Positions 1 to 29,371 of a stretch of 29,371 nt of DNA are shown one piece after another. The stretch is taken from IMG/VR virus record IMGVR_UViG_3300026522_000016; one strand, 5' to 3'. The notes under the pieces were generated by a model. That model worked only from the letters and a program-made list of their open reading frames with translations. It was not told the DNA's origin and ran no database searches. Position numbers and translations under genes: made by a program. Position 1 is the stretch's first letter; the number at the start of each line of letters is the position of its first letter. This DNA comes from a virus.

Positions 1-46
1 TTTCCTAAACCGTGCGTCGGGTGTTCGAATCGCCTCTGGGGCACCA
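1..46 (+). tRNA. Partial tRNA-Arg(CCU), cloverleaf positions 31-76 only (attP core), copy 1
   Basis: Anticodon loop TTCCTAA, 3' anticodon stem ACCGT, variable loop GCGTC, T-arm GGGTG/TTCGAAT/CGCCT, acceptor 3' strand CTGGGGC, discriminator A, CCA. The 5' half is absent. Confidence 0.6.
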
Positions 47-52
47 TTCTTA

Positions 53-101
53 AAAGCCTTGCAAACGCTGAAAATTCAACGTTCGTGCAAGGCTTTGTTT
101 T
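53..101 (+). terminator. Rho-independent terminator downstream of the tRNA fragment
   Basis: Perfect 11-bp stem AAAGCCTTGCA (53-63) / TGCAAGGCTTT (86-96), with inner AACG/CGTT pairing, followed by GTTTTAT. Confidence 0.7.
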
Positions 102-164
102 ATGCGTTCTGTGGTAATATCTTACATAAATTAGTGAAAAAGTGAGGAAAAGTGTGTATAAAGG

Positions 165-187
165 TGTCGTACCCTGCGTCGTACCCT
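165..187 (+). promoter_or_regulatory. Two tandem GTCGTACCCT repeats with 12-bp spacing; candidate integrase arm-type sites (P' arm)
   Basis: tGTCGTACCCTgcGTCGTACCCT. The same 8-mer occurs twice at 29185-29205 on the other side of the att core. Confidence 0.45.
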
Positions 188-205
188 TTTATTCTAATCG
201 TGAAA

Positions 206-246
206 TTAAAAAAATCCCGGAAGGTTGAGCCCTCCGGGATTTTTAT
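206..246 (-). terminator. Bidirectional rho-independent terminator ending the long minus-strand operon
   Basis: Stem ATCCCGGA (214-221) / TCCGGGAT (233-240) plus two further GC pairs. It is flanked by an A7 run (208-214) and a T5 run (240-244). Confidence 0.75.
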
Positions 247-643
247 TTACACTTCTTCGAGAATAAATTTTTTCCATTTCCCGAAGTCGAACTTTCCGGC
301 CTCTGAGCCGGAGCTGCAGGACTGCACGAAGAACTCGCCGGTGTACGTCACCATGATCCGAATCCTGTAACACCACTGCGGTGAGTCCTCTCACCTGCAC
401 ATATACTACGCCTGGATCAAGGGCCAGAGTGTCGCTTTGAGATAGATTGATCTCGATGCAGTTCTTTTCTACGGCCATCTCGTCTACGGCCGTCTCGGTC
501 AGTGTCTTCGTGATTTCCTTATCAGCCTGACGCATGGTCACCCAAATCTGCTTGCAGCGCCTCAGATCAATTTCTGATTCGATGCTTAATTTTAATGTCG
601 GTGTAGTTCCTCTAATCAAAGTTATCGCCTCGCTTTTATGCAT
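206..643 (-). CDS. Hypothetical protein, N-terminal part beta-sandwich/Ig-like (BppU-like pattern); the 3' end is doubtful (see findings)
   Basis: 145-aa ORF. The first ~90 aa look protein-like (RGTTPTLKLSIE...INLSQSDTLALDPGVVYVQVRGL). The last ~50 aa are Arg-rich and read through the terminator hairpin. Confidence 0.45.
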   Translation of the reverse strand: MHKSEAITLIRGTTPTLKLSIESEIDLRRCKQIWVTMRQADKEITKTLTETAVDEMAVEKNCIEINLSQSDTLALDPGVVYVQVRGLTAVVLQDSDHGDVHRRVLRAVLQLRLRGRKVRLREMEKIYSRRSVNKNPGGLNLPGFF

Positions 644-1166
644 TTATTTTCTTGATTAAGATCACGCCTTTATAAAATTTATTTCCACACTTTCTTTTGA
701 TCTCCTGCGTTGCCGTCACCGCACTGATCTTCCCGGAGCTGATCCGCCGGATGCGCGCTCCGTCCCATACGAGAACCACCGTGTGGATCGGATCGCCTTC
801 CTCAAAGATCACCAGCCATCCTTTCCGCAGCCAGTCCCCCAGCTGCTCCGCCGTCGTTGTCCGGCGGAATTTCACGAATTCCGGTCCGATCACTTTTTTC
901 AGCGCCCTGGCGATTTCCACGATCGGATATTTGCTGCGGCACTTCAGGTGCTTTCTCGCGTATTTCAGGCACTTTCCCATTGTCCACTTTTTCCCGCACC
1001 AGCGGAGCGCGATATACATGCCGACCAGCGAGCAGCCGTGTTCGCGGATAAAGGCTGTTTTAAATCGCTGCTGTTTCGGAATTGGAATCCGCCTGCCGTT
1101 TCCGCAGATGATTTCACATGGATATTTGTAGTTATCCGTCTTTCTTATCTTTCCAATACTTGTCAT
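636..1166 (-). CDS. Hypothetical Cys/His protein, possible papain-fold (NlpC/P60-, CHAP- or C39-like) hydrolase
   Basis: 176-aa ORF whose start overlaps the stop of the S subunit by 4 nt. The EHGCSLVGMY motif followed by GWLVIFEEGDPIHTVVLVWDG resembles the Cys and His boxes of papain-like hydrolases. No signal peptide. Confidence 0.35.
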   Translation of the reverse strand: MTSIGKIRKTDNYKYPCEIICGNGRRIPIPKQQRFKTAFIREHGCSLVGMYIALRWCGKKWTMGKCLKYARKHLKCRSKYPIVEIARALKKVIGPEFVKFRRTTTAEQLGDWLRKGWLVIFEEGDPIHTVVLVWDGARIRRISSGKISAVTATQEIKRKCGNKFYKGVILIKKINA

Positions 1167-1609
1167 TTTCTTTGCTCCACAAAAAGATTTCTCATATAAA
1201 AGGCTTTAACTGCCTTTAGCTTCTCAATTTCTCTTTCCTCCGCCTCAATCGCTTCCTGCACTTTTTGCTGCATTTCGACGATTTTGCGCTGCTCTTCGAC
1301 ATCTTCATGATATTCAATTTCAAAATGTCTCAAAGTGTCAATCTGCAGATTTATCGTAGTCAGATACTTGTGCACGAATTTCGGCAGCCCTCTTTCTATG
1401 ACCAGAAATAAGTATTCCGGAATAACTTCTTTTTTTGATGTGACAACGGCGTATCTCGTACTTACTTCGCCCTCAGAAGAATGAAATCTGACTGCGCCTT
1501 TCGTCGCAGACAACTCGATCAGCGTCTCCCCTCCCGGGTAGCGCTTCCCTTTCTTGGCTCTCTCGATCGTCGCCACCTGCGGCAATGTTGCTTCTATGAT
1601 TCTTTTCAT
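1163..1609 (-). CDS. hsdS: Half-size type I restriction-modification specificity subunit (single TRD plus one conserved coiled-coil region)
   Basis: 148 aa. The C-terminal EEQRKIVEMQQKVQEAIEAEEREIEKLKAVKAFYMRNLF matches the HsdS conserved-region pattern (EQ..I......L..LK..L...LF). Strong SD, AAGGAG, 6 nt before the ATG. Confidence 0.65.
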   Translation of the reverse strand: MKRIIEATLPQVATIERAKKGKRYPGGETLIELSATKGAVRFHSSEGEVSTRYAVVTSKKEVIPEYLFLVIERGLPKFVHKYLTTINLQIDTLRHFEIEYHEDVEEQRKIVEMQQKVQEAIEAEEREIEKLKAVKAFYMRNLFVEQRK

Positions 1610-2822
1610 TCAGGTACTCCTTATAAAATTCGTTCGCTTTATCGACAATCTCCTGTGCCTCCGGCGTCGTGCCGACTAACTGCGTCGCCATCGCGATCAA
1701 TTCCCTCTCGGTTTTATCGATCTCCATGTTGATCGCCTTCAGCTCTGCCAGCGTCTCCAGGAGATCGGGCACGGGCTCCGGCTCAAATGTGTCCACATAC
1801 CGCGGAATGTTCAGATTGTATCCATTCTCCTGAATTTCCTCCCGAGTGGCCACATGCGACAGCTTGTCCACATCCATTCTCAAATTCACTACACTTGCGA
1901 CGCGATCAACCTGCTCCTCAGTCATGATGTTCGTCTTTCCGCATTTGATAAACTCTCTCGACGCGTCCACCATCAAGACGTCCTCCCGATCGCGGTTCTT
2001 CTTCAAAATCATTATCAACACAGGGATTCCGGTGTTCAAAAAAAGGTTCTCCGGAAGGCCTATGACCGCATCAATTAAGTTTGCGTCAATCAGATTTTTC
2101 CGTATCGCTTCTTCCTTTTTTCCTCTGAAAAGTACTCCGTGTGGAAGAATTTCCACCAGTGTTCCATCGTCGTCAAGTCTCGAAATCCCATCTTGTATAA
2201 AAAGGTAGTCGCTGAATCCAGACGGCGTCAAGCCAAAAGAAAAACGCGGATCATCCGCGACCTTGTCTACGTCTTGAAATTTCAGTGAGTATGGCGGGTT
2301 GCTCACGATCCGCTTCCACTTACGCGGGGCGCCCTCCGGCTTCAGCACCGGCCGGGTAAACTCGCCGCACGGCTGCATCTCATAGATTGATTCTGTTTTC
2401 CCGGTCAGCACATCCCGAAGCGCCACTTCGCCGCAATATCCCCGGATCCCAAAATTTAAAAGCAGCACCGGAAGCGCCCTCGTGCTGACCTCTTCAGCTC
2501 TGTGGAATCCCCCAGGCTTGCATGCAATCGAAAGCGCACCGGTTCCTGCGCATATATCCAGAGTGTCTTCAGCATCGCCCGACAGTCTCCTGACCAGCTC
2601 GCAGACGCAATCCGGCGTATAATCCTGCTTCAGCTTCCCGCGGTCGCCATGCTCCTCCTGGAAGTAGTCCCGCAGAACGTCCTTTGACAAGTCAATATCC
2701 ATTGTTAACATTTTTTCGTAGAATTCACGCACGCTTTCTCCGGTCAGAATTTCCATTAACCTTTCCGGCATCTCATACGACTCTTTGATCCCGAGAATAT
2801 TGTTAAATTCTTCATTGGTCAT
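1473..2822 (-). CDS. hsdM: N6-adenine DNA methyltransferase, type I HsdM-like (gamma class)
   Basis: AdoMet motif LDICAGTGAL and catalytic motif IV SNPPYS. Helical C-terminus typical of HsdM. The start overlaps the endolysin stop by 4 nt. The last 45 codons overlap hsdS out of frame. Confidence 0.8.
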   Translation of the reverse strand: MTNEEFNNILGIKESYEMPERLMEILTGESVREFYEKMLTMDIDLSKDVLRDYFQEEHGDRGKLKQDYTPDCVCELVRRLSGDAEDTLDICAGTGALSIACKPGGFHRAEEVSTRALPVLLLNFGIRGYCGEVALRDVLTGKTESIYEMQPCGEFTRPVLKPEGAPRKWKRIVSNPPYSLKFQDVDKVADDPRFSFGLTPSGFSDYLFIQDGISRLDDDGTLVEILPHGVLFRGKKEEAIRKNLIDANLIDAVIGLPENLFLNTGIPVLIMILKKNRDREDVLMVDASREFIKCGKTNIMTEEQVDRVASVVNLRMDVDKLSHVATREEIQENGYNLNIPRYVDTFEPEPVPDLLETLAELKAINMEIDKTERELIAMATQLVGTTPEAQEIVDKANEFYKEYLNEKNHRSNIAAGGDDRESQEREALPGRGDADRVVCDERRSQISFF

Positions 2823-3382
2823 TTTTTCTTCCCTGTAAATTCCACTCCGATATAAGAGCAGATGGCTTTGGCCAACGCTTTTCCGTATGCTTCGTGCTGC
2901 GTCAGCTTCTTCATGTCGGCCTTGATCGCTCCGGTCTCAAAGATCACTGCCGGCATGTCAGTTGCGGTCAGTTCGTACAGATCGGGCCGTCGGCCGGCGC
3001 CTTTATACTTCATCTTCATCGCCTTCGCGACGGATTTTCCGACTTTTTTCGCAAAGGCTTTTCCAGATCCTGAGATATACAGCGGATACACGCCCGGACC
3101 GGCCAGCCGATAGTCGCAGTGTACGGACATATACAGTTTTGCCCTCTGGCGATTCGCCCACTTGACGCAGCTGATCATGTTCCTGTTGTTGTTCTTGTCC
3201 GCGTCAGTGAGGACGCGGACTCCGGATCCCCGCAGATATGCTACGGCCGCTTTGGTGATTTTGAGCATCTGGCCGGCTTCGGTGTATTTTCCGTAAGTGC
3301 ATCCCGGATCCCATGATCCGTCGATGCTTTTTCCGTGTCCGCACATCAGCGCCAGCACATCTTTCTTTTTATTCCACGCCAT
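2819..3382 (-). CDS. Endolysin, N-acetylmuramoyl-L-alanine amidase (Amidase_3-like), single domain
   Basis: Motifs CGHGKS...DPGC, SVHCDY and AVIFETG. Start chosen at 3382 (SD GAGGAGG), one nt after the upstream stop, rather than at the ORF-track Met at 3427. Confidence 0.8.
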   Translation of the reverse strand: MAWNKKKDVLALMCGHGKSIDGSWDPGCTYGKYTEAGQMLKITKAAVAYLRGSGVRVLTDADKNNNRNMISCVKWANRQRAKLYMSVHCDYRLAGPGVYPLYISGSGKAFAKKVGKSVAKAMKMKYKGAGRRPDLYELTATDMPAVIFETGAIKADMKKLTQHEAYGKALAKAICSYIGVEFTGKKK

Positions 3383-3383
3383 T

Positions 3384-3659
3384 TTATTTCGCCTCCTCTT
3401 CTGTCTCCTCTTCCGTGACGTCCTCATCTCCGCCTTCTGCTTCCTCCGCGGTCAGCTCGCTGGGGCCCGTCGCCTCCGGAAGTCCAGCCACAGAGGTAAG
3501 CAGCGAAAGAATCCCCGCCAGCACTGCCGCAGAGATCACCATCCTCCAATCCACCGATGACAGCACCGCCGCACTTCCGATCGTGGCGATTGCCGTCTGC
3601 GCCATAGTCTTCACGGCGCGCGTTCCGGCTGCCTTCATCCAAATTTTGTTAATCATCAT
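3384..3659 (-). CDS. Holin-like membrane protein (r1t-type pattern) with an acidic C-terminal tail
   Basis: 91 aa. The N-terminal RAVKTMAQTAIATIG motif and two hydrophobic segments sit next to the other holin and the endolysin. Confidence 0.55.
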   Translation of the reverse strand: MMINKIWMKAAGTRAVKTMAQTAIATIGSAAVLSSVDWRMVISAAVLAGILSLLTSVAGLPEATGPSELTAEEAEGGDEDVTEEETEEEAK

Positions 3660-4084
3660 CCTGCCTCCTTTTTTGTTTCCTGATTTGTGAGCATCTCAAT
3701 TCCGCGCTGGATCACCTTGGGGATCGGTATCCCCATGAGCCCCGCGTTTTCGATGATGCTCAACGTTTCGTTGGTGATAAATGCGATCACCGTGGCATCG
3801 CGTATGAAATGCGTATGCGCTTCAAAGTCCAGCCTGCATGCCACGATCACAATCATCATGATCACTCCCTTGCGACACAATCCTTTAAATCCCGCCCTCG
3901 ACTCCAGCTTTCCTGTACGCGATTTTTTTGACTTATGAAAAACACCGGCCACAATTAAGCCGGTGACGTAGTCAATTGCCATGAAAATTACGAGAGTCGT
4001 CATGGAGTCGCTCCAGCCGCCGAAAAATTCAGCGACCACCCCGCCTGCGATTCCGCAGCAGACCGCAAATGTTTTCTCTCCCAT
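3656..4084 (-). CDS. Holin, Phage_holin_4_1 (TcdE/toxin-secretion holin-like) family
   Basis: 142 aa with multiple TM segments. Motifs AIDYVTGLI, GFKGLCRKG and ITNETLSIIENAGLMGIPIP are typical of this holin family. Confidence 0.8.
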   Translation of the reverse strand: MGEKTFAVCCGIAGGVVAEFFGGWSDSMTTLVIFMAIDYVTGLIVAGVFHKSKKSRTGKLESRAGFKGLCRKGVIMMIVIVACRLDFEAHTHFIRDATVIAFITNETLSIIENAGLMGIPIPKVIQRGIEMLTNQETKKEAG

Positions 4085-4093
4085 GTCTACCTC

Positions 4094-5632
4094 CTATGCT
4101 GTCCTCTTCCACATATATACGGTCAAGTACGGAGGCATGTTGTTGTGCGGTTGTGTCCCGCCTGCACCGTCGGTAGTACCTGAGTGAGTGTGCGCTCCTG
4201 CGGAAGTTGTTCTTACCTCTCCTGCGTTGTAATTGCTCCAGTGCTGACCATCGATTGTCCCTTTTCCATACGCATCTTTTCGCTTGTAGCCTGCTCTGTG
4301 ATCGTGGCTGCCCGCAGAGTCCGTAGTGAAAGCATGCCGGTGATCCGGCAGTTCAGCTTCCGTCAGTGTGTGTGTCGCTTCACCGCCGAAACCACCGGCA
4401 GCATACGTTGAGCCTGCCGCAAGCAAAAATCTGTCCTGAATTCTTTCCCACGTTCCGCCAAACAGCGTGGCTGGTGATGTGGCGTTTGTCGACATATAGA
4501 TAGAGCCGACGGGGTAAATTAGATTGGCTATTCCGGTAATATCCGATGGTGTAATGTTCTCCGCCCTTAAATTTTTGAAGCCGCAATATATCTCGTCTTT
4601 GTTCGCAGCTGTTCCTCCAAACGCGATTCCTTTCCCATCTGTCCTAACGTCCATGATGTATGCCTTAGAAAATATCCTTACCTTCGCTGACTTTGCCGTT
4701 GTATAGTCGTCTGTGAGTTCTGCATAAATGTCCCATGTATAATCTTGCGACAATTCGACAGTGATAGATTGATCTGCGAATTTTGCTGTGGTTGGTGATA
4801 TTGTTTGCGTAAGTTTCTGCCATCCTGTCGCGCTCGTTTCTTTTATATAAAATGCAATCGTTCTTGACGTGCTACTTTCAGCGGATTCTCCGGAACAAGA
4901 TAATACAACATTGTTCATGTCGATTGCCAGTCTGTATGCCTTTACTGAGCATGAGCACGCCGTTTCCGTCACGGATACACTGTATAGTCTTTTTGCAAGC
5001 AGATTTCCATCTGCATATTCATCCACTATCAATGATGTTAAATTTCCGGCTCGTTTGAAAACACTTGCAGGAACGGCAAATTCAACTGTTTTTCCGTATA
5101 ATTCATATGTGTACTGCGTTCCGCCATTATTGCAAAAATTCAACTTGTATGATGAAGCCTTATCGAATGTATAAGTCCCAAGCTCTCCGTATTTAAGTTC
5201 TTCTGGCTTTGTTTCTAGATAGCCCGAGTCGAAAAGGATCGTATGCCGTCCATACTCATTCGTTGTAATTCCGTAGTTAAATATTTCTCCGCTGTCTTTG
5301 TATTCTATATATGCGTCTGCCCAAGTTGTAATGTTTCCATATTGTCCATCAATTGTTTCAGTCGCTGTTAAAACACAGTTCATCGATTTGCCAACACTAA
5401 CTGACTTCGATACTGTTGAGTTGTCGTTCTTTTCAATTCTCGCCGTAACTGTTATATTTTTTGAGGATTTTGCATATAGGCTGTATTTTATTTCAGCGTG
5501 TGTCATATTTATTTCCACATCAAGAGAAACAATTTCGATTAGCAAATAGCTATCTTTGGACAATTCGCCTGCACCTGCCGAAACATATGGGTCTTTATCT
5601 AACTTTATCGTTTTGCTTATTATCGCCATCAT
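4094..5632 (-). CDS. Receptor-binding tail fibre with a C-terminal phage tail-collar-like domain
   Basis: 512 aa. The C-terminus (YPVGSIYMS...LFGGTWERI, HxH-rich Gly stretch, PHNNMPPYLTVYMWKRTA) matches the tail-collar/MdpB-type pattern. It is the last structural gene before the lysis cassette. Confidence 0.7.
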   Translation of the reverse strand: MMAIISKTIKLDKDPYVSAGAGELSKDSYLLIEIVSLDVEINMTHAEIKYSLYAKSSKNITVTARIEKNDNSTVSKSVSVGKSMNCVLTATETIDGQYGNITTWADAYIEYKDSGEIFNYGITTNEYGRHTILFDSGYLETKPEELKYGELGTYTFDKASSYKLNFCNNGGTQYTYELYGKTVEFAVPASVFKRAGNLTSLIVDEYADGNLLAKRLYSVSVTETACSCSVKAYRLAIDMNNVVLSCSGESAESSTSRTIAFYIKETSATGWQKLTQTISPTTAKFADQSITVELSQDYTWDIYAELTDDYTTAKSAKVRIFSKAYIMDVRTDGKGIAFGGTAANKDEIYCGFKNLRAENITPSDITGIANLIYPVGSIYMSTNATSPATLFGGTWERIQDRFLLAAGSTYAAGGFGGEATHTLTEAELPDHRHAFTTDSAGSHDHRAGYKRKDAYGKGTIDGQHWSNYNAGEVRTTSAGAHTHSGTTDGAGGTQPHNNMPPYLTVYMWKRTA

Positions 5633-5642
5633 TTCACCTCTC

Positions 5643-7829
5643 TCAAATGATTTTTAATGTCAAATTCCCATTTTCACGATTGATAAAAACGAATTTACCG
5701 AGCTGTATCATCGGTGCTTCTCCGCCTAATGAGGCTGTAACATTCCCATCAGCATCTATTATGTCAAAACTATCAGGGTCAATTTCCGCATGAGTTTCGT
5801 CCTTTTTCCCGATAACCGCTCCTGTTGCCTTGAAGCTTGCCACCTCGGTTTCAGCGGTTGATACGTCTTTTATGCTCAGTCCATCCGAACCGATGTCAGT
5901 ACGATATCTTGCCGTATCTGATCGACTGCCCAGTATATGCGTGCCCGCCGCATCGTGCCAGAAAAATTCCTGTTGGTCGTCAATTTTTCCCTGCGCGGCT
6001 TCCGCAGCCGCTTGAGCCACCGCCGCCGCCTCTCCCGCAGAGTTTGCCGATTTTGTGGCATTTACTGCTGCATTTCCAGCTTCGTTTGCACTAGACTGTG
6101 CTTTTGATGCTGCCGTGCCGGCACTGTCTGCCTTGCTCTGGGCTGTGGCCGCTGCCTCGGATGCCTCGTTGGCTTTGGTCTGTGCGGCGCTCGCAGCGTT
6201 TGCCGCCGAGGATGCAGATGCTTTGGCCGCATCGGCTGTTGACTGTGCCGTAGCTGCCGCTTGTGCCGCCGTGTCCGCGCTGGATTGCGCGGAGGATGCG
6301 GCTGCGCTTGCTTCGTTAGCTTTTGTCTGGGCTGTAGCCGCCGCAGTAGATGCTTCGTCGGCTTTGCTCTGCGCCGTCGCCGCAGCTCTTGCGGCGGAAT
6401 CTGCTGCGCGTGAGGCCGCGGTTGCTGTTGATTGTGCCAGCGTTGCTTCTGCACGTGCGTCGTCTGCTGTTGACTGCGCTGTGGCTGTCTCCTCTGCCAG
6501 CTCCATCGCCGACTTTTTCCACGGCGATGTCATTTCGTTTTCTCTCGCGGTTTCGGCGGCGCGTGCGCTTTTTATTGTCGTTATCGCCTCGCCGGCAAAT
6601 TTGACCGTCTGTGTCCCTATCAGTATGATTTTCCCCTGTGTGGCCATCTCTGCCCGTATGCTGCTGTCATCTTCCGCAGATTCTGCAGCGTTCCGCATCC
6701 TGAGCCAGTTTTCATACTCAGCCTCCGACATTATCCGGATAAGATTACCCGCCTGAAGTGACAAGTCCCATTTGCATGACACGGCAGCTCCGATGTATCT
6801 CGTCCCTCTATACTGGCTAAAAATGTCTTCGAGTATATCTTCATCAACAAAGGGATTCGTCCATGACACGGACTGCCCTGCCCCGGTCTCAATCACGTCA
6901 GATGTGAGATTCGTTGTCCGGCTGCGGTTGCACGACATTCCGTCGATCACGATCTCTCCGGACGACTCTTCTCGATAGTCCATGAGTTCCTCTTTCAGCA
7001 GGATTGTATCATCTGTCAAATATAAAGATATCCCGATTTCTCCATTTTCATCCGCATGAGCAAATCCCCCTGCCAGTCCTGCGAAATATCCTATCGCGTC
7101 CCGGTATGAGCAGGAAAAGTCCCACGTGATCGTCTTGTTGTACACGCCGTCAAACGTAAATGGCTCAACCGGAATCCCTGTTTCCTCCTGGCATGCCGCC
7201 CGGAATGAATCAAAGTGATTTTGTACCGTGTCTGTGGCTTTTGCCGGCATATATGTTCCATGAAGGAATATCGTGCTGTCGAAGCACTCCAGCTGCAGCC
7301 CTTCGCTTGTCGATTTCTGACCATATACAAAAAAAGTGCCGACCTTCTTCCATGCATTTTCCGCAGCCTCGTCCGTCGTCACTTCTTCATTTTCCAGACT
7401 TTCACCTTCGACCTGCTCAACGATTTTCCCCCTCAGAGCAGCTTCTTCCGTCTCTGTTTCTGCGAGTTCCTCTTCACTCAGATCTTCTCCTTCTTCTTCC
7501 TCTTCCTCTTCATATGTGTCGCTGTCATTGTCATCAATACTTTCTTCTTCTGATTCGCTTCCGACCAGCGTCTCCAGCTCCCCGATCCGGTCAGTTCCAT
7601 CTCCATCCTCATTCGGAGCAATCCACAGCTCCACTGTGTCCCCGTCGAATGCGCTCTTATATGGATTGATCAGTGTGAGCGTCAGTTTGTCGATGGCCAC
7701 GCTCCCGATTTCCAGCGCGCCGCTGGACACGCTATTCATCAGCGCTACCCCTGTTATTGATGTTTTTCCCGGCTCTGCCTTGTCCATAATCTCAACGCCG
7801 TTTATGATTGTTTTGACATCGTATTTCAT
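5643..7829 (-). CDS. Tail-associated protein (Tal-position) with an acidic insert and a long Ala/Gln/Ser/Thr coiled-coil repeat region
   Basis: 728 aa, the second gene after the tape measure. It carries an E-rich segment and about 10 degenerate 14-aa repeats. Confidence 0.65.
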   Translation of the reverse strand: MKYDVKTIINGVEIMDKAEPGKTSITGVALMNSVSSGALEIGSVAIDKLTLTLINPYKSAFDGDTVELWIAPNEDGDGTDRIGELETLVGSESEEESIDDNDSDTYEEEEEEEGEDLSEEELAETETEEAALRGKIVEQVEGESLENEEVTTDEAAENAWKKVGTFFVYGQKSTSEGLQLECFDSTIFLHGTYMPAKATDTVQNHFDSFRAACQEETGIPVEPFTFDGVYNKTITWDFSCSYRDAIGYFAGLAGGFAHADENGEIGISLYLTDDTILLKEELMDYREESSGEIVIDGMSCNRSRTTNLTSDVIETGAGQSVSWTNPFVDEDILEDIFSQYRGTRYIGAAVSCKWDLSLQAGNLIRIMSEAEYENWLRMRNAAESAEDDSSIRAEMATQGKIILIGTQTVKFAGEAITTIKSARAAETARENEMTSPWKKSAMELAEETATAQSTADDARAEATLAQSTATAASRAADSAARAAATAQSKADEASTAAATAQTKANEASAAASSAQSSADTAAQAAATAQSTADAAKASASSAANAASAAQTKANEASEAAATAQSKADSAGTAASKAQSSANEAGNAAVNATKSANSAGEAAAVAQAAAEAAQGKIDDQQEFFWHDAAGTHILGSRSDTARYRTDIGSDGLSIKDVSTAETEVASFKATGAVIGKKDETHAEIDPDSFDIIDADGNVTASLGGEAPMIQLGKFVFINRENGNLTLKII
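5995..6490 (-). repeat. Degenerate ~42-bp (14-aa, two-heptad) tandem repeats inside the Tal gene
   Basis: Units such as AATAQSKADEASTA / AATAQTKANEASAA / AATAQSKADSAGTA recur about 10 times. Coordinates are approximate. Confidence 0.7.
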
Positions 7830-8702
7830 TTATACCTCCATCAGCGAAACGCTGATTTCCTTGAATAATCCGTTCGGATATTTCACAATGCCCCTCTCGT
7901 TGCTCGCGAAAAAAGTCCCGTTCTTCGGCTTTCCTGTCGCCGGATCTAGGTATTGCACCGTTATATAGTTGTACTCGCCTTTCGTGTTTTTCGACGGATT
8001 CAGAATCTGGAGGATTGCCTCTCCTTCTTCCGCCGTCACTCCGGCCCACTTCAGCGTCAGCGTGACCACGTTCGCTCTGACATTGCTCAGTACATATGAT
8101 CCTGAGTTGTCTCGACCATCTGAGTTATTTGCACTCGACTCAAAATTTCTCCGCACATCCGAGTATGTCAGCGAACACTCGCACGGATGAGGAAGGTGGC
8201 TCGGTGCGTTTGCACGATTTCCCGATCCGTCAAAATAGTGATCCGCGAAAAAGAAAATTGCTTCACTGTCAACATATGTCGAATACTCTTTGTCCACGAC
8301 CGCCTTATCTTCATACTGCAGTCTGTACTGATACGGCTTTTTCGTCGTATATGTGCTACGCTTCATTTTCTTTTTCTTTTTCAGCGCCGATGTTTTTGAG
8401 TATATCGTGTATCCTCTTACCTGATATCGTACGCGGCACGTCCTTTCTACCCCATCGATCGTCCGCTGTGCGGTGGCTGGTATGCTCGTGTCGCACACCG
8501 TCACGCCACCCGCCTTGAATTCCGATGCACTGCCCGGTTTATCCTTAGCGCTCTTGCTGTACTTTACCGATTTTGTCTTTGACGCCACCGGCTTTTTCAG
8601 TTTCGTCCATGGTCCATAGGACCCCCAAGTGAATGTTGTGGAGCCGCCTTTTCGGATTTCGAGGATCTTGGACGTTCCCATATAAAAAAGCTGTGCTTCC
8701 AT
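7830..8702 (-). CDS. Distal tail protein (Dit-position), called by synteny
   Basis: 290-aa ORF directly after the tape measure and abutting Tal. It contains an unusual Lys-rich insert (KKKKKMKRSTYTTKK). Confidence 0.5.
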   Translation of the reverse strand: MEAQLFYMGTSKILEIRKGGSTTFTWGSYGPWTKLKKPVASKTKSVKYSKSAKDKPGSASEFKAGGVTVCDTSIPATAQRTIDGVERTCRVRYQVRGYTIYSKTSALKKKKKMKRSTYTTKKPYQYRLQYEDKAVVDKEYSTYVDSEAIFFFADHYFDGSGNRANAPSHLPHPCECSLTYSDVRRNFESSANNSDGRDNSGSYVLSNVRANVVTLTLKWAGVTAEEGEAILQILNPSKNTKGEYNYITVQYLDPATGKPKNGTFFASNERGIVKYPNGLFKEISVSLMEV

Positions 8703-19852: not shown

Positions 19853-20242
19853 TTAGTCCAGGATGTATATTTTTTTCGCCACTTCATAGATGAACCGGCT
19901 TTTGTGGTTACCGTATGTATTTCTACTTGCATCGTCCGGATACGGCTCTCCGCTCATGATGTTTCGCCACACTCCTCTGCGGTACTCCTCGGGAATCTCT
20001 TCCAGCGCCTCATCCACGATCTTAACCATGCGCACATACTTTTCCCTCCTGATCGCCGCGCTTTCCACCGTGTTTCCGATCGCCGTTCCCCTGGGCTGTC
20101 CGTCCGGCGGCTCCGGCGACGCCGTCAGTGCAGCCTCAGCCTCCTGCTTCATTCTGTAGTAATCCCGTATCTGATACAGCGTTGCCATATACAAATTACG
20201 CGGCAGAACGTATCTGCTCTCTTTTCTCTGGTATTCGCTCAA
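19853..20242 (-). CDS. Late-gene transcriptional activator, RinA/ArpU-like (sigma-70 region-4-like)
   Basis: 129 aa, just upstream of HNH/terminase. The IPEEYRRGVWRNIM...YPDDASRNTY...KSRFIYEVAKKI pattern is typical of this family. Confidence 0.6.
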   Translation of the reverse strand: MSEYQRKESRYVLPRNLYMATLYQIRDYYRMKQEAEAALTASPEPPDGQPRGTAIGNTVESAAIRREKYVRMVKIVDEALEEIPEEYRRGVWRNIMSGEPYPDDASRNTYGNHKSRFIYEVAKKIYILD

Positions 20243-21045
20243 AGCTCAATCTCCTCCTGCTCCTCAATCTCTGTCGCACGGTAATACTCTTTGGTGCTGA
20301 CCACCTTCCCTCGCGGCCATGTCTTATATTTCCTCGGCTTGCCCAGCGCCACCTCAACATACTCAAGATGTTCCAGGCCTGTGACCGGATGCTCGTATCG
20401 TCTGACTCTGTCTTTAGGAATATAATATCCGCTGATCGGCTCCGGCTCGTCCGTCATTTCCTTCAGCGTGGTTTCGTCTCTCTTTGTCTGCGGCATGATC
20501 AGATTGCGGCTGCGAGAATATCTCTGTTTATGCTGGCTGTCCGATTCCCGGAAAGTCTTTTCCGTTTCCTTGATCAGATACTCCGCCAGGTCATGAAAGT
20601 CACCTTCTTCCCGAAGCGCCGTAAAGTGTACGCCGCCTTTCCCCCACAGCCTGGTGACCAGCTCCACATCCTGCGAGTTCATCACAATGTGGTGATGGAT
20701 CCTCTTATTCTTGTACTCAGTAACAATGACATACTTCAGGTCCTTCCCTTGCCGCTTAAATTCTTTCCGCAGCTTCGCGATCATCTTCTTGCGATCCGCG
20801 GCCGCCTGATCTTTCTCCGGCTCTTCCCCTGCGTATGTCAAAGTGACGTGGCTCCCGGTCGAGTCAAAATTATTCGCAAGCAGCATCCACAGTCTCCAGA
20901 TTGCGATGCGCATGTTATTCTTTTTCACCGCTTCACTCGTGATCCCGGTGCGTGCTCTTCTTTTCTGTCTGTGATTTCCGGAAGGCACCACCACTCTCCG
21001 ATGGATGATCCGGCCGGCAACCGTCGTCTCTCTCACTACTCTCAT
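20239..21045 (-). CDS. HUH-superfamily rolling-circle replication initiator (Rep)-like protein
   Basis: Motifs occur in Rep order: HVTLTY (motif 1), RIHHHIVMN (HUH), AEYLIKE (YxxK catalytic Tyr). Confidence 0.55.
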   Translation of the reverse strand: MRVVRETTVAGRIIHRRVVVPSGNHRQKRRARTGITSEAVKKNNMRIAIWRLWMLLANNFDSTGSHVTLTYAGEEPEKDQAAADRKKMIAKLRKEFKRQGKDLKYVIVTEYKNKRIHHHIVMNSQDVELVTRLWGKGGVHFTALREEGDFHDLAEYLIKETEKTFRESDSQHKQRYSRSRNLIMPQTKRDETTLKEMTDEPEPISGYYIPKDRVRRYEHPVTGLEHLEYVEVALGKPRKYKTWPRGKVVSTKEYYRATEIEEQEEIEL

Positions 21046-21079
21046 TTTTCTCTATCGTTAATACTCTAATCAAGTCCCA

Positions 21080-21102
21080 ACCGCTTGCCATCGGCAAGCG
21101 GT
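21080..21102. other. Perfect 10-bp hairpin with a 3-nt loop, immediately upstream of rep; candidate nick site/origin, or a terminator
   Basis: ACCGCTTGCC-atc-GGCAAGCGGT in the 75-nt intergenic gap, with a (TA)n tract (21108-21118) adjacent. Confidence 0.4.
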
Positions 21103-21120
21103 ATTTCTATATATATAATG

Positions 21121-21345
21121 TTATTTTTCTTTCCATTCGCTCAGTGCGGCGATCATCTTCTCCAGCTCTTCCTGCGTCAGCCCGCACCGTTTCTTTGGAA
21201 CTCCGTCCGGATCGAAGGTCCTCAACTCGTACACCGGCTTCCGGTCAAACCACTTCACAAGGACAAGTCTTTTCGTATATCCCTGATCGTTTTCGCTCAG
21301 GATGCTCAGGGTTTTGATCACTTCATATTTCATCTCCGTCATCAT
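21121..21345 (-). CDS. PC4/YdbC-like ssDNA-binding protein
   Basis: Start chosen at 21345 (SD GAGGAGGAG). The 74-aa product (MMTEMKYEVIKTLSILSENDQGYTKRLVLVKWFDRKPVYELRTFDPDG...GLTQEELEKM) matches the YdbC/PC4 pattern. Confidence 0.55.
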   Translation of the reverse strand: MMTEMKYEVIKTLSILSENDQGYTKRLVLVKWFDRKPVYELRTFDPDGVPKKRCGLTQEELEKMIAALSEWKEK

Positions 21346-21661
21346 CCGGCTCCTCCTCGTACTCCACTTCCAGGCCGCACATCTCAGCCACGTCCAGCTC
21401 CAGGTCAGCGCCCGGGCTCTCTTCGTATCCTTTGAGCATGTATATCTTGTCCGCACTCTGGAGCATCGTCATGATACCTTCTCTCAAGCACTCTTCATAT
21501 GTCATATCTTTCGTGCAGATCCCAAGCGGATTGATCGGCACCTCTCTGCGCTCTTCGATCATCTTCTCTGCCGTCCGGAATCTTCTTTCCGCTTCTTCCC
21601 GCTCCATCCCACTGATCGGGCCGGAAATATATGTTACCTTTATTCTCCTCTTCATGCTCAT
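21323..21661 (-). CDS. DUF4406 protein (nucleoside 2-deoxyribosyltransferase-like fold)
   Basis: YISGPISGM...INPL...ADKIYMLKGYEESPGADLELDVAEMCGLEV matches the DUF4406 signature (GWe.S.GA..E...A). Confidence 0.6.
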   Translation of the reverse strand: MSMKRRIKVTYISGPISGMEREEAERRFRTAEKMIEERREVPINPLGICTKDMTYEECLREGIMTMLQSADKIYMLKGYEESPGADLELDVAEMCGLEVEYEEEPDDDGDEI

Positions 21662-21951
21662 ATGATAAGCTCTCCTTTTAATCTTCTCGTCTGTACTTCT
21701 CCGTATGATATCCCCAGCAGCTTTCCTGCTTCTGCTGCAAGATCGATGCCCTTCTTTTTCTTCTTCCTCATCATTTCATATACCTCGGCCACGGCATCCA
21801 GCTCCCGGCGGATCGGCTCCCGCAGTCTTTCGCTCTTTCCCGGCAGCATGTCCAGAGGGAAGGACCATGCTTCACCGCCTCTCCTGATGCAGATGATGTC
21901 TCCAAGGCATTCATACTCCGTGGCATCGTCGATCTTACTTTTATATTTCAT
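21658..21951 (-). CDS. Hypothetical protein (97 aa)
   Basis: Start chosen at 21951 (SD AGGAGGAG). 4-nt overlap with the next gene. Confidence 0.55.
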   Translation of the reverse strand: MKYKSKIDDATEYECLGDIICIRRGGEAWSFPLDMLPGKSERLREPIRRELDAVAEVYEMMRKKKKKGIDLAAEAGKLLGISYGEVQTRRLKGELII

Positions 21952-21961
21952 CGCGCTCCTC

Positions 21962-22366
21962 CTAATCAATGTTTTTGAAGTTGTACGGGACAATCATCTT
22001 CGGGTTATAGTTGATTGTGTACTGATACTTGCTAACTCCGGTGCCGTTAATGTCTTCGACGACGTACATGGTCGTCGCCTTGTTCAATCCCACAATGTGC
22101 TTTTTATATTTTCCTTTGCTCGTCTCCACGATAATGTACAGTTTGTCTCCGGATGTTTTGATTGACATCCGTCCGGTCATCTCAAACACCGGTTTGTTGG
22201 ATATCGTGTTGAGTACTGCTACGCGTCGTACCACGTTGAAGTTGTCGGCCTCTTTCGATACGTTCTCCGACACTCGATCCGCTTCATTGCATCCGACGGC
22301 GATCAGTGCGATTGCCATAATCGATGTAATCAGTAAAATCATTTTCCAAGCTTTCTTCGTTTTCAT
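21962..22366 (-). CDS. Lipoprotein; superinfection-exclusion candidate
   Basis: The signal peptide MKTKKAWKMILLITSIMAIALIAVGC ends in a lipobox Cys. The gene is more AT-rich than its neighbours and sits in the early region. Confidence 0.6.
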   Translation of the reverse strand: MKTKKAWKMILLITSIMAIALIAVGCNEADRVSENVSKEADNFNVVRRVAVLNTISNKPVFEMTGRMSIKTSGDKLYIIVETSKGKYKKHIVGLNKATTMYVVEDINGTGVSKYQYTINYNPKMIVPYNFKNID

Positions 22367-22375
22367 TTTTTCCTC

Positions 22376-23392
22376 CTACTCCAGCTGGCCATCCATGATC
22401 CCGACCAGCTTCTTTAGTGCGGCTTTCATGGTCTTCTGCCTTTCTTCGTCCGGCTCGTCATCGATGCAGTTCCGGCACTTGTTGAAGCTTTCCTGGAGCG
22501 CATCGGCTCTGACCTTGAAGGCGGCCACCTGCGGATCCGCTGTCTTTTCGAGTCTCCGGCTCTCGGCCTTCGCCTCCTCCAGCTCGGCTGCAAGGCGCCT
22601 CTTTTCCTTTTCCGCCTCGGCGACGGCTTCCTTCTTCGCCGCTTCCACCGCGTCCTGTGTCTCTTTTTCCTTCGCCTTTTCCGCGTCGGCTTTCGCCTTG
22701 GCCCTCGCCTCCTCGATCTTCTGCTTCAGTTCCGCCTTCAGGCTGGCCAGCTCTTGCTTCTTCTTTTCCAGCGCGTCCTCTGCGGCTTTCCGCTTTTCCT
22801 CTGCTTCCGGATTCTCTTTCCCCTTTTCTGCGGCCTCTTCCACTTCCTTCAGCCTATTCCTCATTTCCGCAAGCTCCGCCTTCATGGCTTTCGCTTCCTC
22901 AAACTGCTCTCTGATCTCATCATTGGAGTCGCGCAGCTCCTCATTTTCCTCTTTGACTCTTTTCAGTTCCGCCTCCAGTTCCCTCGCGGTCATCTCGGCG
23001 ACATTTTCGTTTTCCACGACCTCTTCGGCCACTTCTTCCGGTGCGGCTAAAAGCTTCCAAACCCTTGAAATTCCCAAATCCGACAACGTTGTCGTTTTTG
23101 CAAACAGGCTGTCTTCGTCGGACATTTTTTCGGCCAGTTTCATCATCCGATTTGCCTTCTTGGCGCTGAATTTCAGATTCTTTTCCATCCAGTCTTCCCA
23201 CTCGCCGTGGCCTACTCGCGTCTTGATCACGGACAGCCGGCGGCCGGATTCTGCTACCAGCCGGAGACTGATCCCCGCCACGGCTTCCGCCTGCGCATAC
23301 AGGGCATTTGCCTCGGAAGTGAGATCCTCCGTGGTCTTCCTGGTGAGGTCCACTACCTCACGGTATTCTTTCACATCTATAATGTTTTCCAT
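22376..23392 (-). CDS. DUF3102 protein with a long C-terminal coiled coil
   Basis: The N-terminal GHGEWEDWMEKNLKFSAKKANRMMKLAE matches the DUF3102 signature. The C-terminal half is E/K/A-rich coiled coil. Confidence 0.6.
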   Translation of the reverse strand: MENIIDVKEYREVVDLTRKTTEDLTSEANALYAQAEAVAGISLRLVAESGRRLSVIKTRVGHGEWEDWMEKNLKFSAKKANRMMKLAEKMSDEDSLFAKTTTLSDLGISRVWKLLAAPEEVAEEVVENENVAEMTARELEAELKRVKEENEELRDSNDEIREQFEEAKAMKAELAEMRNRLKEVEEAAEKGKENPEAEEKRKAAEDALEKKKQELASLKAELKQKIEEARAKAKADAEKAKEKETQDAVEAAKKEAVAEAEKEKRRLAAELEEAKAESRRLEKTADPQVAAFKVRADALQESFNKCRNCIDDEPDEERQKTMKAALKKLVGIMDGQLE

Positions 23393-23401
23393 GCTCCCTC
23401 C

Positions 23402-25030
23402 TTATGCGGCCGGTGCTCCGGCTCCTTTTGCCGCCTTCTTTTCTGCTTTTACCATTTTCCTGATCCGCTTCAGCAGCCACTCGTGCCAGCTTTCTATAAA
23501 CTTCTGGACATCATCCGGATAGGCGCAGTTGTGCAGCCCCCGGCACTGTACGATACCGCAATACTTGTTCAATTCGAGTGTAAAATACGGCGTTTCCGGA
23601 TCCTCGACTTTTCGGATAAATAGGATCGCCGCATCCCCTCGCTCCACTTTCTTGTCGTATATCCTTACGCAATGGCCAAGCACCCGCGACTCCTTCCCCA
23701 GCTCCGCCGGAGACTTTGCCGGCCGGATCAGCAGGCGGCCATCCGTCCACGGTTCCGTCATTGTCGTGATCCTCTTTTCCGCAGCGGCGAATTTCTCCAC
23801 TGCGACCTTATCTTTGATCAATGCGTACTTTTCCATCGCCTCATCGTGCATCTGTAGGAAATTTCTCGGATAGACTGTTTTCTTGTCCATCCGCCACCCC
23901 AGGGCTTCGGCCGCTTCTAGGTAGTCGGCATAATCCCCGAAAGTGATGTCGTCGTCCGTCGCTCTCCGCTCTTCCAGCAGCCGCTTCGCAACCTTTGAGA
24001 TGTCCGCACGCTCTTTGATCAAGTCCATCCCTTGATTGCTGCAGCAGTCCATCTTCGTGAGTTCTCTTACATCTGACGGCCTCACCCACGGGGCGCGCTT
24101 CTTCCATCTGTTCCAGTTTTCCATGAAGTAAGCGTTCACCTTCTCCTGCCGCAGCTCCCGCAGTTCGCTACGGTCGCACTTAAGGATCTTTCTCAGATCC
24201 TTCGACCTCAAATTCACCGTCCGCGTCTTCGTCCCGTCAATCACACGCTCCATCACGAGTCTCTCGAAGCCGCTTTTTTCCAGGACTTCAATTCCCGGAT
24301 ATTTCACAAAATCCGACATGTATCGGATCGTCTGCCTTGCTATCTCACTCTCATCATCCGACATGTATCGGATCGTCTGCCTTGCTATCTCACTCTCATC
24401 AAACATGGCCACTCTGCGCCAGAATTTGTCCGGTTCTGCATATTGCAAATCAATCCCAACATCCATGTTCCTGATATCGTCATGATAAATATGATCGTGA
24501 TATTTTGACCATCCCCACATGTTCGACGGTTTAACCCTGAGATTGATGGTTTTAACGCAATACCAGTGCGTCCGCCCATGCCATTTTTCAAAATCCCAGC
24601 GTTCCTGAGATTTCCCCGATATTCTGATTTGCGAGTCCGGCCCGATGCGGACTTTGGGCGGGAGCACGGTATAATCGATTGTGAAGATGTCAACATTCAC
24701 GAATGTCACTGACTTGATCCCTCTCGTCCAGATGATCCGTCCGCGATCCGTCAGCTTCTTGCGACCATATCTCACGTCCTTCTGCGTCACTTCGGCGCCG
24801 CAGTTCGGGCACCAGGTCTTCACCTTCCTTTCTTCTCCCTGCGGCGTGTGCACCGGGATGATTTCGCTCCCGCGCAGTTTCCCCCGGTGGCCGCAGCGGG
24901 TGCACTCCCACCAGTCTTCCTTCTGGGAAAAGAAGATGTAATTGATGTCCTGGCAGTTCTCCAGGATATATTTTTCCAGGCCCTTCGGCCGCGGAATCTT
25001 ATATGGTCTCGTGTCTTCCATCACAGCCAC
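23402..25030 (-). CDS. PcfJ-like protein with N-terminal zinc ribbons
   Basis: 542 aa. The N-terminus has CTRCGH...CPNCG. The C-terminus (LGHCVRIYDKKVERGDAAILFIRKVEDPETPYFTLELNKYCGIVQCRGLHN) fits the PcfJ domain pattern. Confidence 0.55.
   Translation of the reverse strand: MAVMEDTRPYKIPRPKGLEKYILENCQDINYIFFSQKEDWWECTRCGHRGKLRGSEIIPVHTPQGEERKVKTWCPNCGAEVTQKDVRYGRKKLTDRGRIIWTRGIKSVTFVNVDIFTIDYTVLPPKVRIGPDSQIRISGKSQERWDFEKWHGRTHWYCVKTINLRVKPSNMWGWSKYHDHIYHDDIRNMDVGIDLQYAEPDKFWRRVAMFDESEIARQTIRYMSDDESEIARQTIRYMSDFVKYPGIEVLEKSGFERLVMERVIDGTKTRTVNLRSKDLRKILKCDRSELRELRQEKVNAYFMENWNRWKKRAPWVRPSDVRELTKMDCCSNQGMDLIKERADISKVAKRLLEERRATDDDITFGDYADYLEAAEALGWRMDKKTVYPRNFLQMHDEAMEKYALIKDKVAVEKFAAAEKRITTMTEPWTDGRLLIRPAKSPAELGKESRVLGHCVRIYDKKVERGDAAILFIRKVEDPETPYFTLELNKYCGIVQCRGLHNCAYPDDVQKFIESWHEWLLKRIRKMVKAEKKAAKGAGAPAA
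24311..24400. repeat. Perfect 45-bp tandem duplication (2 copies, in frame) inside the PcfJ-like gene
   Basis: 24311-24355 equals 24356-24400. It encodes DESEIARQTIRYMSD twice. Confidence 0.9.
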
Positions 25031-25033
25031 CTC

Positions 25034-28156: not shown

Positions 28157-29230
28157 ATGTCTAAGAAATATAAACATGAAAAAACCTTTACATACAACGG
28201 CAAACGATATCACGTCTATGCCGATACGCAAATTGAACTTGGAAGGAAAATTCAGAAGAAGATCGCAGCCCTGGAGTCAGGCTCTCGTGTGGTCAGCGGC
28301 GACACCACTCTGGCCAACTGGGCAGAAAAGTGCATCGAAGCATATAAGTCTGATCAGAGCGATGTCACTCGAAAAAAATATATTAACCGAGTAAAAAGGT
28401 GCATCTTAACCGAACTCGGCGATCTTCCTTTAAAACGCATCACTCCTATGCACTGCCAGAGCATCATGAACAGTCAGGCCGGCAAAAGTCATACGCAAAT
28501 CAACGAGGTTTACCAGGCTTTGAAGTTCCTCTTCAAACATGCTTTGGCCAACGGTCTTATCGCATCCGATCCGACTGTCCATCTGGCCAAGCCTAAAGCA
28601 AAGCGCGTCAAGTCCCGCAGAGCGCTCACAGCATATGAGCGTGAGCAGGTAATTTCTCTCGCGTCTACTGATCGGCGGTGGTACCTTTACCTTCTGATGC
28701 TCGGATGTGGCTGCCGTCCTTCCGAAGCTGCTGAGTGCAAAGGTATGGACATCACTATATCCGAAGGCCATCCGATGCTGCATATACGAGGGACAAAAAC
28801 CCCGCTGTCCGATCGGCTCGTGCCTATTCCGGAATTCCTTTACGCGCTCATCAAAGACACTCCGCGGGTGGAGTATATCGCCCAGAACCGGAAAGGTAAC
28901 CGGATCACGAATATGGATAGACTGTGGAAAGGATTTAAGTACCATCTCAATATTCAAATGGGATGCAAAACTTACCGGAACCAATTAGTTCCACCATATC
29001 CCCTGGCTCCCGATCTGGTCCCGTACTGCTTTCGTCATGAGTTTTGCACCAATCTTGCCCGCGAGGGAATCGATATTCGCATAGCGCAAAGGCTCATGGG
29101 GCATTCAGACATTGCGCTTACCGCAAATATTTACACCAACTTCGATCAAAGTGACTTGATAAAAACCGCCGAAAAAATCGGTACTGTCGTACCTGGTGTC
29201 GTACCCACGGACGATATCGTTGAAAAATAG
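28157..29230 (+). CDS. int: Tyrosine integrase (phage integrase family)
   Basis: 357 aa with an N-terminal arm-binding-type domain. Box I is GCRPSEA. Box II is CFRHEFCTNLAREGIDIRIAQRLMGHSDIALTANIYTN (R, H-x-x-R, Y). Confidence 0.9.
   Translation: MSKKYKHEKTFTYNGKRYHVYADTQIELGRKIQKKIAALESGSRVVSGDTTLANWAEKCIEAYKSDQSDVTRKKYINRVKRCILTELGDLPLKRITPMHCQSIMNSQAGKSHTQINEVYQALKFLFKHALANGLIASDPTVHLAKPKAKRVKSRRALTAYEREQVISLASTDRRWYLYLLMLGCGCRPSEAAECKGMDITISEGHPMLHIRGTKTPLSDRLVPIPEFLYALIKDTPRVEYIAQNRKGNRITNMDRLWKGFKYHLNIQMGCKTYRNQLVPPYPLAPDLVPYCFRHEFCTNLAREGIDIRIAQRLMGHSDIALTANIYTNFDQSDLIKTAEKIGTVVPGVVPTDDIVEK
29185..29205 (+). promoter_or_regulatory. Two tandem TGTCGTACC repeats with 12-bp spacing; candidate integrase arm-type sites (P arm), inside the int 3' end
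   Basis: TGTCGTACCtggTGTCGTACC, 40 nt upstream of the att core. Same motif and same orientation as 165-187. Confidence 0.45.
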
Positions 29231-29244
29231 CGATTCTGCCGCGC

Positions 29245-29290
29245 TTTCCTAAACCGTGCGTCGGGTGTTCGAATCGCCTCTGGGGCACCA
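29245..29290 (+). tRNA. Partial tRNA-Arg(CCU) 3' segment (attP core), copy 2, 14 nt after the int stop
   Basis: Same parse as 1-46. The upstream sequence lacks a D-arm and the 5' acceptor strand GCCCCAG. Confidence 0.6.
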
Positions 29291-29296
29291 TTCTTA

Positions 29297-29345
29297 AAAG
29301 CCTTGCAAACGCTGAAAATTCAACGTTCGTGCAAGGCTTTGTTTT
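29297..29345 (+). terminator. Rho-independent terminator (copy of 53-101)
   Basis: Same 11-bp stem and T-rich tail, within the terminal repeat. Confidence 0.7.
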
Positions 29346-29371
29346 ATGCGTTCTGTGGTAATATCTTACAT

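Follow-up and report, generated by a model that had tools for sequence, protein, structure and literature searches.

The lysis-operon tail of a temperate Clostridia phage: a methyltransferase pair, a candidate auxiliary lysin and a broken gene cassette

The viral record IMGVR_UViG_3300026522_000016 from IMG/VR, a stretch of 29,371 nucleotides (nt) that we refer to in its entirety as the window, carries a block of four open reading frames (ORFs) at positions 206-2822, between the endolysin gene and the phage attachment site, attP. On the minus strand, the gene order is holin, holin, Amidase_3 endolysin, an HsdM-like methyltransferase (M), a half-size HsdS specificity subunit (half-S, or S), a 176-aa protein, a last ORF of 145 aa, a terminator and attP. 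We think it probable that this block consists of three separable accessory modules in the tail of a late/lysis operon: an orphan M.S methyltransferase, an auxiliary lysin and a dead remnant. The original prediction raised the idea of a single functional unit, with M.S possibly targeting a small effector. This idea is not supported: the modules separate outside the immediate lineage of the window, and the co-occurrence of the two unknown genes with M/S in relatives, which had been proposed as a check, largely fails beyond that lineage. On our reading, the block is not a new restriction or defense system that lacks HsdR and relies on a protease as effector, and a deletion has left one of the four genes as a scar. 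There is little out of the ordinary in the locus, whose parts are each of a known kind. What it adds is incremental, namely the late placement of M.S and an unannotated C39-like family.

The physical arrangement can make the block look like a unit. As originally described, it is physically linked to the lysis cassette, on the side facing att. The endolysin TGA and the M ATG overlap as ATGA at 2819-2822, and the S stop and the start of the 176-aa gene overlap in the same way at 1163-1166; both overlaps had been predicted and are present in the sequence. The complete order of lysis cassette, M, S and 176-aa gene is found in the immediate lineage, which comprises the window, its closest IMG/VR relative (L001) and L008-L012. 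One of these, L008, is a near-identical prophage in Hornefia butyriciproducens GCA_034183155.1, and it serves below as the intact reference.

The M plus half-S pair

The first gene of the block (1473..2822, minus strand) is a 449-aa ORF encoding an HsdM-like, gamma-class N6-adenine DNA methyltransferase, with matches to N6_Mtase (2.4e-54), phrog_6380 (3e-96) and the PADLOC model MTase_I (1e-74). It carries LDICAGTGAL as motif I and NPPY as motif IV, and the HsdM-like methylase of the original prediction is thereby confirmed. The N-terminal 150 aa match the phage family phrog_1071 only, and there was no Pfam match to HsdM_N (PF12161) in M at E<=0.1. The second gene (1163..1609, minus strand) encodes the half-size HsdS of 148 aa. 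It has a single target recognition domain (TRD) followed by a C-terminal coiled-coil helix, and matches Methylase_S (2.2e-8, residues 17-132), phrog_2668 and many PADLOC Specificity_I models, as expected for the half-size HsdS with one TRD that had been proposed. It also has its own strong ribosome-binding site, AAGGAG, 7 nt upstream of the ATG. PADLOC recognizes only M and S in the block, and the 176-aa and 145-aa proteins are without a match. The absence of HsdR held up as well: a scan of 20 other ORFs, with the small ORFs scanned in part, showed no HsdR, helicase or nuclease families. No ORF is larger than 728 aa, and the ORF of that size sits in the tail module.

M and half-S without HsdR, in an arrangement with a lysis operon and a papain-like protein, had not been recognized as described, but the pair is frequent in annotated phages, and it is only the position that is unusual. 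A tblastn search found M homologs in 234 GenBank phage records; in 26 of these, the homolog is close to full length. We read the M/S context in four records: Streptococcus phages phiZJ20091101-4 (ORF36/ORF35), Pika (CDS0062/0063) and IPP16 (IPP16_00029/00030), and Enterococcus phage 1_EfsPF36. In all four, an M of about 411-438 aa is directly followed by an S homolog of 141-146 aa that is 26-35% identical to the window S, and HsdR is absent beside the pair. These pairs, of families phrog_6380/phrog_2668, are like that of the window in having a compact HsdM-like M (36-42% identical, full length), a single-TRD S next to it, and no HsdR. However, they lie in the early/replication module with the M stop abutting the S start, whereas the window pair is chained to the endolysin and its genes overlap by 137 nt. 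The records name the M and S genes from homology only, and we found no experimental study of such a pair in the literature searched. Judged by these comparisons, M plus half-S without HsdR is a compact, recurrent gene pair of Firmicutes phages, unusual in this phage for its late-operon, post-endolysin placement. A different configuration is seen in Lactobacillus phage Lv-1, where gp46 (L033 2715-3842), annotated as "DNA methyltransferase," carries homology to the half-S TRD at its C-terminus; gp46 is a natural methylase-TRD fusion and adjoins an HNH endonuclease gene.

Half-HsdS proteins, both natural and engineered, form dimers that methylate a palindromic bipartite sequence in combination with M (PMC6158711). 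By analogy with these enzymes, two half-S subunits of the window phage would pair through their C-terminal helices and take up two M subunits, giving an M2S2 complex that would N6-methylate adenines in a palindromic bipartite target. The likeness would be to the half-HsdS of the CC398-1 system (PMC6158711), with its single-TRD S that needs dimerization, its M2S2 assembly and its palindromic bipartite N6-methyladenine target. In contrast to the window, CC398-1-type half-HsdS belong to complete restriction-modification systems that restrict with HsdR; the window encodes no HsdR, and its S is shorter (148 aa). Without HsdR, M.S would be unable to restrict. Instead, it would probably mark replicated phage DNA before packaging, allowing escape from host restriction of matching specificity. 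Methylation of phage DNA for anti-restriction, already suggested in the original prediction, is kept here as the most economical role for M.S. It would resemble that of the lactococcal 936-type phage methylases (PMC4190342), which are likewise phage-borne, have no cognate nuclease and are expected to protect phage DNA. The characterized orphan phage methylases are single-subunit and type II-like, whereas the window enzyme would be two-subunit and type I-like.

The original prediction was silent on the 137-nt overlap between M and S. The M ORF (1473-2822) runs 137 nt into S (1163-1609) in another frame, and the overlap involves the last 43 M codons. Within it, the window differs at 17 nt from L001 and from L008/L009, which results in 5-6 amino acid changes in S and 12-14 in the M tail. 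Because the same 17 differences change fewer S residues, the S frame is the constrained one, and change in the M tail is about twice as rapid as in the N-terminus of S. The M C-terminus, SQISFF (GQLSFF or GQISFF in relatives), aligns with the conserved EQLxL[LWF] of the Streptococcus and Enterococcus homologs. We considered the M tail over S as pure read-through junk and did not fully accept this, as the terminal motif is kept despite the faster change. Since the M ORF retains the family's C-terminal motif, the overlap may be true dual coding, or it may be due to chance. A +1 shift at GAAAAG, just past the S start codon (about 1603-1608), would yield an M-S fusion. M-S fusions are described as functional in EcoKI (PMC3510504).

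Two relatives bear on the integrity of the pair. In L001, M is frameshifted into ORFs of 160 aa and 350 aa (L001 4343-5694), which fits a dispensable accessory function. In L009 and L010, an 80-aa gene call raised the possibility of a truncated half-S. We rejected this: the 148-aa ORF is present in full, and the overlap with M misled the gene caller into the short call.

The 176-aa protein and its family

The third gene of the block (636..1166, minus strand) encodes a 176-aa protein that we identify, from invariant residues, a structural model and fold matches, as a divergent C39-like (papain-fold) cysteine peptidase with C45 and H128 as the catalytic residues. The protein has no Pfam (E<=0.1), PHROG or PADLOC match. 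H43-G44-C45 and H128 are invariant in an alignment of 28 diverse family members. The AlphaFold (AF2) model is confident, with a predicted local distance difference test score (pLDDT) of 89.6 and a predicted template modeling score (pTM) of 0.88, and it places the Cys at the start of helix 45-56. The original description as a Cys/His papain-like protein, made from the sequence alone, was therefore apt. In the PDB, the model matches the folds of the Bacillus anthracis C39-like peptidase 3erv, the C39 domain of PCAT1 (6v9z) and staphopain (1pxv), with weaker similarity to deubiquitinases (TssM, Josephin, USP). Among the viral models of BFVD, it comes closest to phage "Peptidase" entries (E 2e-6, TM 0.64-0.69), the endolysin of a Gordonia phage, Lysin A of mycobacteriophages, a phi29-type wall hydrolase and tape-measure segments. 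A search of the family profile against PDB sequences gave no match.

C39-like cysteine protease domains are recognized modules of mycobacteriophage LysA, and 3erv is the HHpred match of the LysA N5 domain (PMC3314691). The window protein is like LysA N5 and Peptidase_C39_2 in its papain fold, Cys/His dyad and lysis-module context, and 3erv is among its best fold matches. Unlike them, it stands alone, with no wall-binding module and separate from the amidase endolysin.

The extent of the family depended on the search. A word-based search recovered 6 clusters, and an exhaustive profile search recovered 65 clusters at 50% identity. A metagenome scan returned only duplicates and one fragment, and single-protein scans with members P0010 and P0014 returned nothing. 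Several relatives have the catalytic domain joined to other domains: to CW_7 in P0021, P0024, P0027 and P0037; to SH3_3 in P0046 (9e-10) and, more weakly, in P0052 and P0053; and to CHAP and a long C-terminal region in P0022. P0053 exceeds the gathering score of Peptidase_C39_2 (PF13529), with 28.6 bits against a cut-off of 24, which ties the 176-aa family to the Peptidase_C39_2 clan; P0046 reaches 21.5 bits. By the Pfam PF13529 criterion, the window protein would be classed as a divergent relative, not a member. Two unusual architectures were also seen. Three giant proteins of 3,445-3,737 aa (P0055, P0060 and P0065) carry the domain near the C-terminus along with a Peptidase_C39_2 domain. P0023 (345 aa), in which the catalytic Cys is changed to Ser, the His is lost and an extra C-terminal domain is fused, is probably a pseudo-enzyme.

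A survey of gene neighborhoods in about 10 lineages places the family within or beside the lysis cassette in 6 of the 10, and five lineages other than that of the window have it with lysis genes and without M/S. In L017-19, the order is holin, Amidase_3, the family gene and then a D12-class methylase (5e-12). In L002/L003, a recombinase gene is followed by the family gene, a holin and a GH25 lysin. In L025-L028 and L030, the family gene stands between a tail fiber gene and a run of 1-TM (single transmembrane segment) protein, r1t holin, Phage_lysozyme + PG_binding_1 and integrase, and in L037/38, it lies between holin and lysozyme with overlaps on both sides. L020, L021 and L023 have the family gene in early-gene regions, and in L020, it overlaps an N6_N4 methylase. 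In the window, M and S stand between the amidase and the 176-aa gene.

Because of the lysis-cassette contexts and the wall-binding fusions, an auxiliary peptidoglycan hydrolase is the best reading of the 176-aa protein, which probably is not an M.S effector. As a stand-alone catalytic domain, it would most likely cleave peptidoglycan alongside the Amidase_3 endolysin after the holins have opened the membrane. Altogether, this is an unannotated C39-like family of about 65 clusters, with no Pfam or PHROG name, tied to the lysis cassettes of gut Clostridia phages. It is a candidate addition to endolysin catalogs.

The last ORF and its broken cassette

The fourth gene had been described as encoding a beta-sandwich-like protein of 145 aa. 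The intact family is indeed predicted to be a beta-sandwich, but the ORF itself (206-643), compared with its relatives, is a deletion chimera and not a native gene. The family phrog_15594 matches residues 9-88 of the ORF only, and the homologs are 100-109 aa, covering about 56% of it. Aligned at the DNA level to L008, in which the region is intact, the window is short of exactly 445 nt. There is CGCAG microhomology at the junction (376..380, no strand), and the deletion took 24 codons from the 3' end of a 105-aa gene, together with most of the next, 167-aa gene. What is left of the first, as judged from homologs and L008, is the 5' 81 codons (381..619, minus strand) of a phrog_15594/BppU-N-like beta-sandwich gene of about 105 aa when intact. 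These codons continue out of frame through the remnant of the 167-aa gene and the terminator hairpin, and this out-of-frame reading past the deletion accounts for the odd tail of the 145-aa ORF, "...KNPGGLNLPGFF". Of the second, fiber-like gene, a 3' remnant of about 42 codons survives, with the stop at 247-249 (247..375, minus strand). Its frame-0 translation, "...WCYRIRIMVTYTGEFFVQSCSSGSEAGKFDFGKWKKFILEEV" up to the stop, matches the C-terminus of the L008 167-aa gene; the remnant's own frame ends "...GKWKKFILEEV" and stop, 2 nt before the hairpin. We considered the odd tail as a simple frameshift of the normal C-terminus and rejected this, as neither alternative frame encodes the normal C-terminus. 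An identical chimeric protein (P0071) is recorded from other assemblies, so the deletion allele is real.

The start of the last gene is more likely the TTG at 619 than the ATG at 643, because homologs begin MIRGTTP and there is a GAGG 8 nt upstream. The 8-nt overlap with the 176-aa gene that had been noted at 636-643 exists when counted from the ATG at 643; with the TTG start, it is probably a 16-nt spacer instead.

The intact cassette can be read from relatives. In its intact form, the 105-aa protein is modeled as an all-beta sandwich (pLDDT 74.6), and its BFVD matches include BppU-N and baseplate proteins. Its 167-aa partner has the fiber motifs GxPGKSAYEIA and AGLLSSDDKKSLD. In the predicted beta-sandwich and in the fiber motifs of the partner, the pair would be like BppU-N Ig-like domains and small tail-fiber proteins. 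Unlike BppU-N and tail-fiber genes, the cassette follows the lysis genes rather than lying in the tail module, and in the window it is deleted. The 167-aa protein is 93% identical to a 217-aa protein of an unrelated, myovirus-like phage (L013-16), and the two differ by a collagen-like insert. That phage, which carries a sheath initiator, Baseplate_J and an Amidase_2 lysin, also has the two-gene cassette after its lysis genes, facing the integrase, and there it is accompanied by neither M/S nor the peptidase. Because the same pair is found in an unrelated phage without M/S or peptidase, the beta-sandwich and fiber-like genes form an independent mobile cassette, which the 445-nt microhomology deletion has destroyed in the window. 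The cassette positions compared were 7001-7818 in the siphovirus-like L008 and 7001-7953 in the myovirus-like L013. In L001 there is no beta-sandwich gene at all, and a gene on the opposite strand takes its place.

Expression, alternative explanations and genome context

The lysis cassette upstream of the block opens with a 142-aa holin of the Phage_holin_4_1 type (3656..4084, minus strand; PF05105 on the near-identical L008 gene). A second holin of 91 aa, r1t-type (3384..3659, minus strand; PF16945 on the L008 ortholog), and the N-acetylmuramoyl-L-alanine amidase endolysin (Amidase_3; 2819..3427, minus strand; Pfam 1.5e-21 and PHROG endolysin families) follow. Since M overlaps the endolysin gene at ATGA and leaves no intergenic space, we infer that M is co-transcribed with the lysis genes. 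The strong terminator that had been predicted next to attP is there: an intrinsic terminator with a 15-bp stem and T-run (210..244, minus strand), conserved in L008, which by its position would close the late/lysis transcription unit. Another terminator-like hairpin, CGCGGATGATCCGCG plus a T-run, lies within the M coding sequence (2245-2259, minus strand) and is probably a chance match.

The original prediction also offered a scheme of joint function. In it, M.S would be the targeting module of a non-canonical restriction or defense system, and the 176-aa papain-like protein would be the effector. The ATGA coupling of S and the 176-aa gene is consistent with this, as are the gene order kept within the immediate lineage (L001, L008-L012) and the presence of the peptidase family beside three methyltransferase families (N6_Mtase plus S here, D12 in L017 and N6_N4 in L020). 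However, lysis cassettes of five other lineages contain the peptidase family without any methylase, and its fusions are to CW_7, SH3_3 and CHAP. In addition, M plus half-S occurs without the 176-aa gene in the Streptococcus and Enterococcus phages, and the components that PADLOC recognizes are M and S only. We also know of no precedent for DNA cleavage by a papain fold, and an effector of this kind seems to us extremely doubtful. A second possibility concerns the lysogen. The M/half-S of the prophage could recruit a host HsdR, or could add methylation, giving the host a new restriction specificity against other phages, or epigenetic regulation. Lactococcal plasmids that carry only hsdS are a precedent for new host restriction specificity. 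Orphan HsdS subunits combining with chromosomal HsdM and HsdR are discussed in PMC11318856. Lying between the lysis genes and att, the block is in the classical moron slot, and it finishes with a strong terminator of its own; both would suit lysogenic conversion. Yet there is neither intergenic space nor a convincing promoter before M, whose ATG overlaps the endolysin stop, and late expression is favored. M is also compact, with no HsdM_N domain detected, and is frameshifted in one close relative (L001). On balance, lysogenic conversion is a reasonable rival but an unlikely one.

The 176-aa protein might also work inside the cell, as a protease, amidase or deubiquitinase-like enzyme of counter-defense that might, for instance, inactivate a defense protein of the host, in which case its clustering with methylases would reflect a shared role as cargo. 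The weak fold similarity to deubiquitinases besides C39 peptidases would be in line with this, and so would the early-gene location in three lineages, the adjacency to three methylase families and the domain near the C-terminus of the 3,400-3,700-aa proteins (P0055, P0060 and P0065). Against this, the CW_7, SH3_3 and CHAP fusions and the holin-endolysin context in 6 of 10 lineages indicate the cell wall, and the closest viral structural neighbors are lysins and virion wall hydrolases. We regard an intracellular counter-defense role as improbable. Still, several points weigh against our preferred reading of separable modules with an auxiliary lysin. The window protein is without a cell-wall-binding domain and falls below every Pfam threshold, and 3 of the 10 lineages (L020, L021 and L023) have the family in early-gene regions. 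The M/half-S pair is usually early in other phages, not late. Promoter-like sites in the region were no commoner than expected by chance in a promoter scan, which neither proves co-transcription nor rules out an internal promoter active in the lysogen. Finally, in three of the 10 lineages the family adjoins a methylase, and the type of methylase differs each time (M.S, D12 and N6_N4; at 1163-2822 in the window, 5526-6044 in L017 and 3514-4356 in L020). This adjacency is commoner than expected, chance explains it only moderately well, and it is the main unexplained point. From the gene contexts, it can be explained if both are cargo of the same variable slots. A functional link of the 176-aa family to methyltransferases, as an intracellular counter-defense protease acting alongside methylation or as a processing or regulatory partner, is very doubtful in our view. 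If it were true, S and the 176-aa gene would not be coupled here by accident.

The window holds the complete circular genome, of 29.2 kb, of a temperate phage of Hornefia-like Clostridia. The first 127 nt are repeated exactly at the end (1-127 = 29245-29371), and because of this terminal repeat, the window is a circular assembly with a unit phage genome of 29,244 bp. Bases 1-45 are identical to the 3' 45 nt of tRNA-Arg(CCT), and the tRNA is complete at the prophage/host junction of L008. The fragment is the attP core (no strand), in the place given for attP in the original prediction, because it is located just past the stop of the integrase at 29230; it is present twice (1..45 and again 29245-29289), since the circular assembly has a 127-nt terminal overlap. 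The tyrosine integrase (28157..29230, plus strand; Phage_integrase 6e-17) is convergent with the four-gene block, with attP between them. A blastn search of 1-4100 against GenBank phages gave no DNA match, and the GC content of the block, 0.48-0.51 compared with about 0.52 for the genome, is uninformative on foreign origin.

Among the 20 further ORFs, Pfam searches gave a terminase, an SPP1-type portal and the integrase, as well as PcfJ, PcfK-like, DUF3102, a Rep ORF2/G2P-type initiator, VG64, DUF4406 and an HTH repressor. The replication/early region at 20239-25360 contains a PcfJ-like protein (542 aa), a weak PcfK-like match, DUF3102 and the Rep ORF2/G2P rolling-circle-type initiator, and it resembles a plasmid or conjugative element more than a typical siphovirus.

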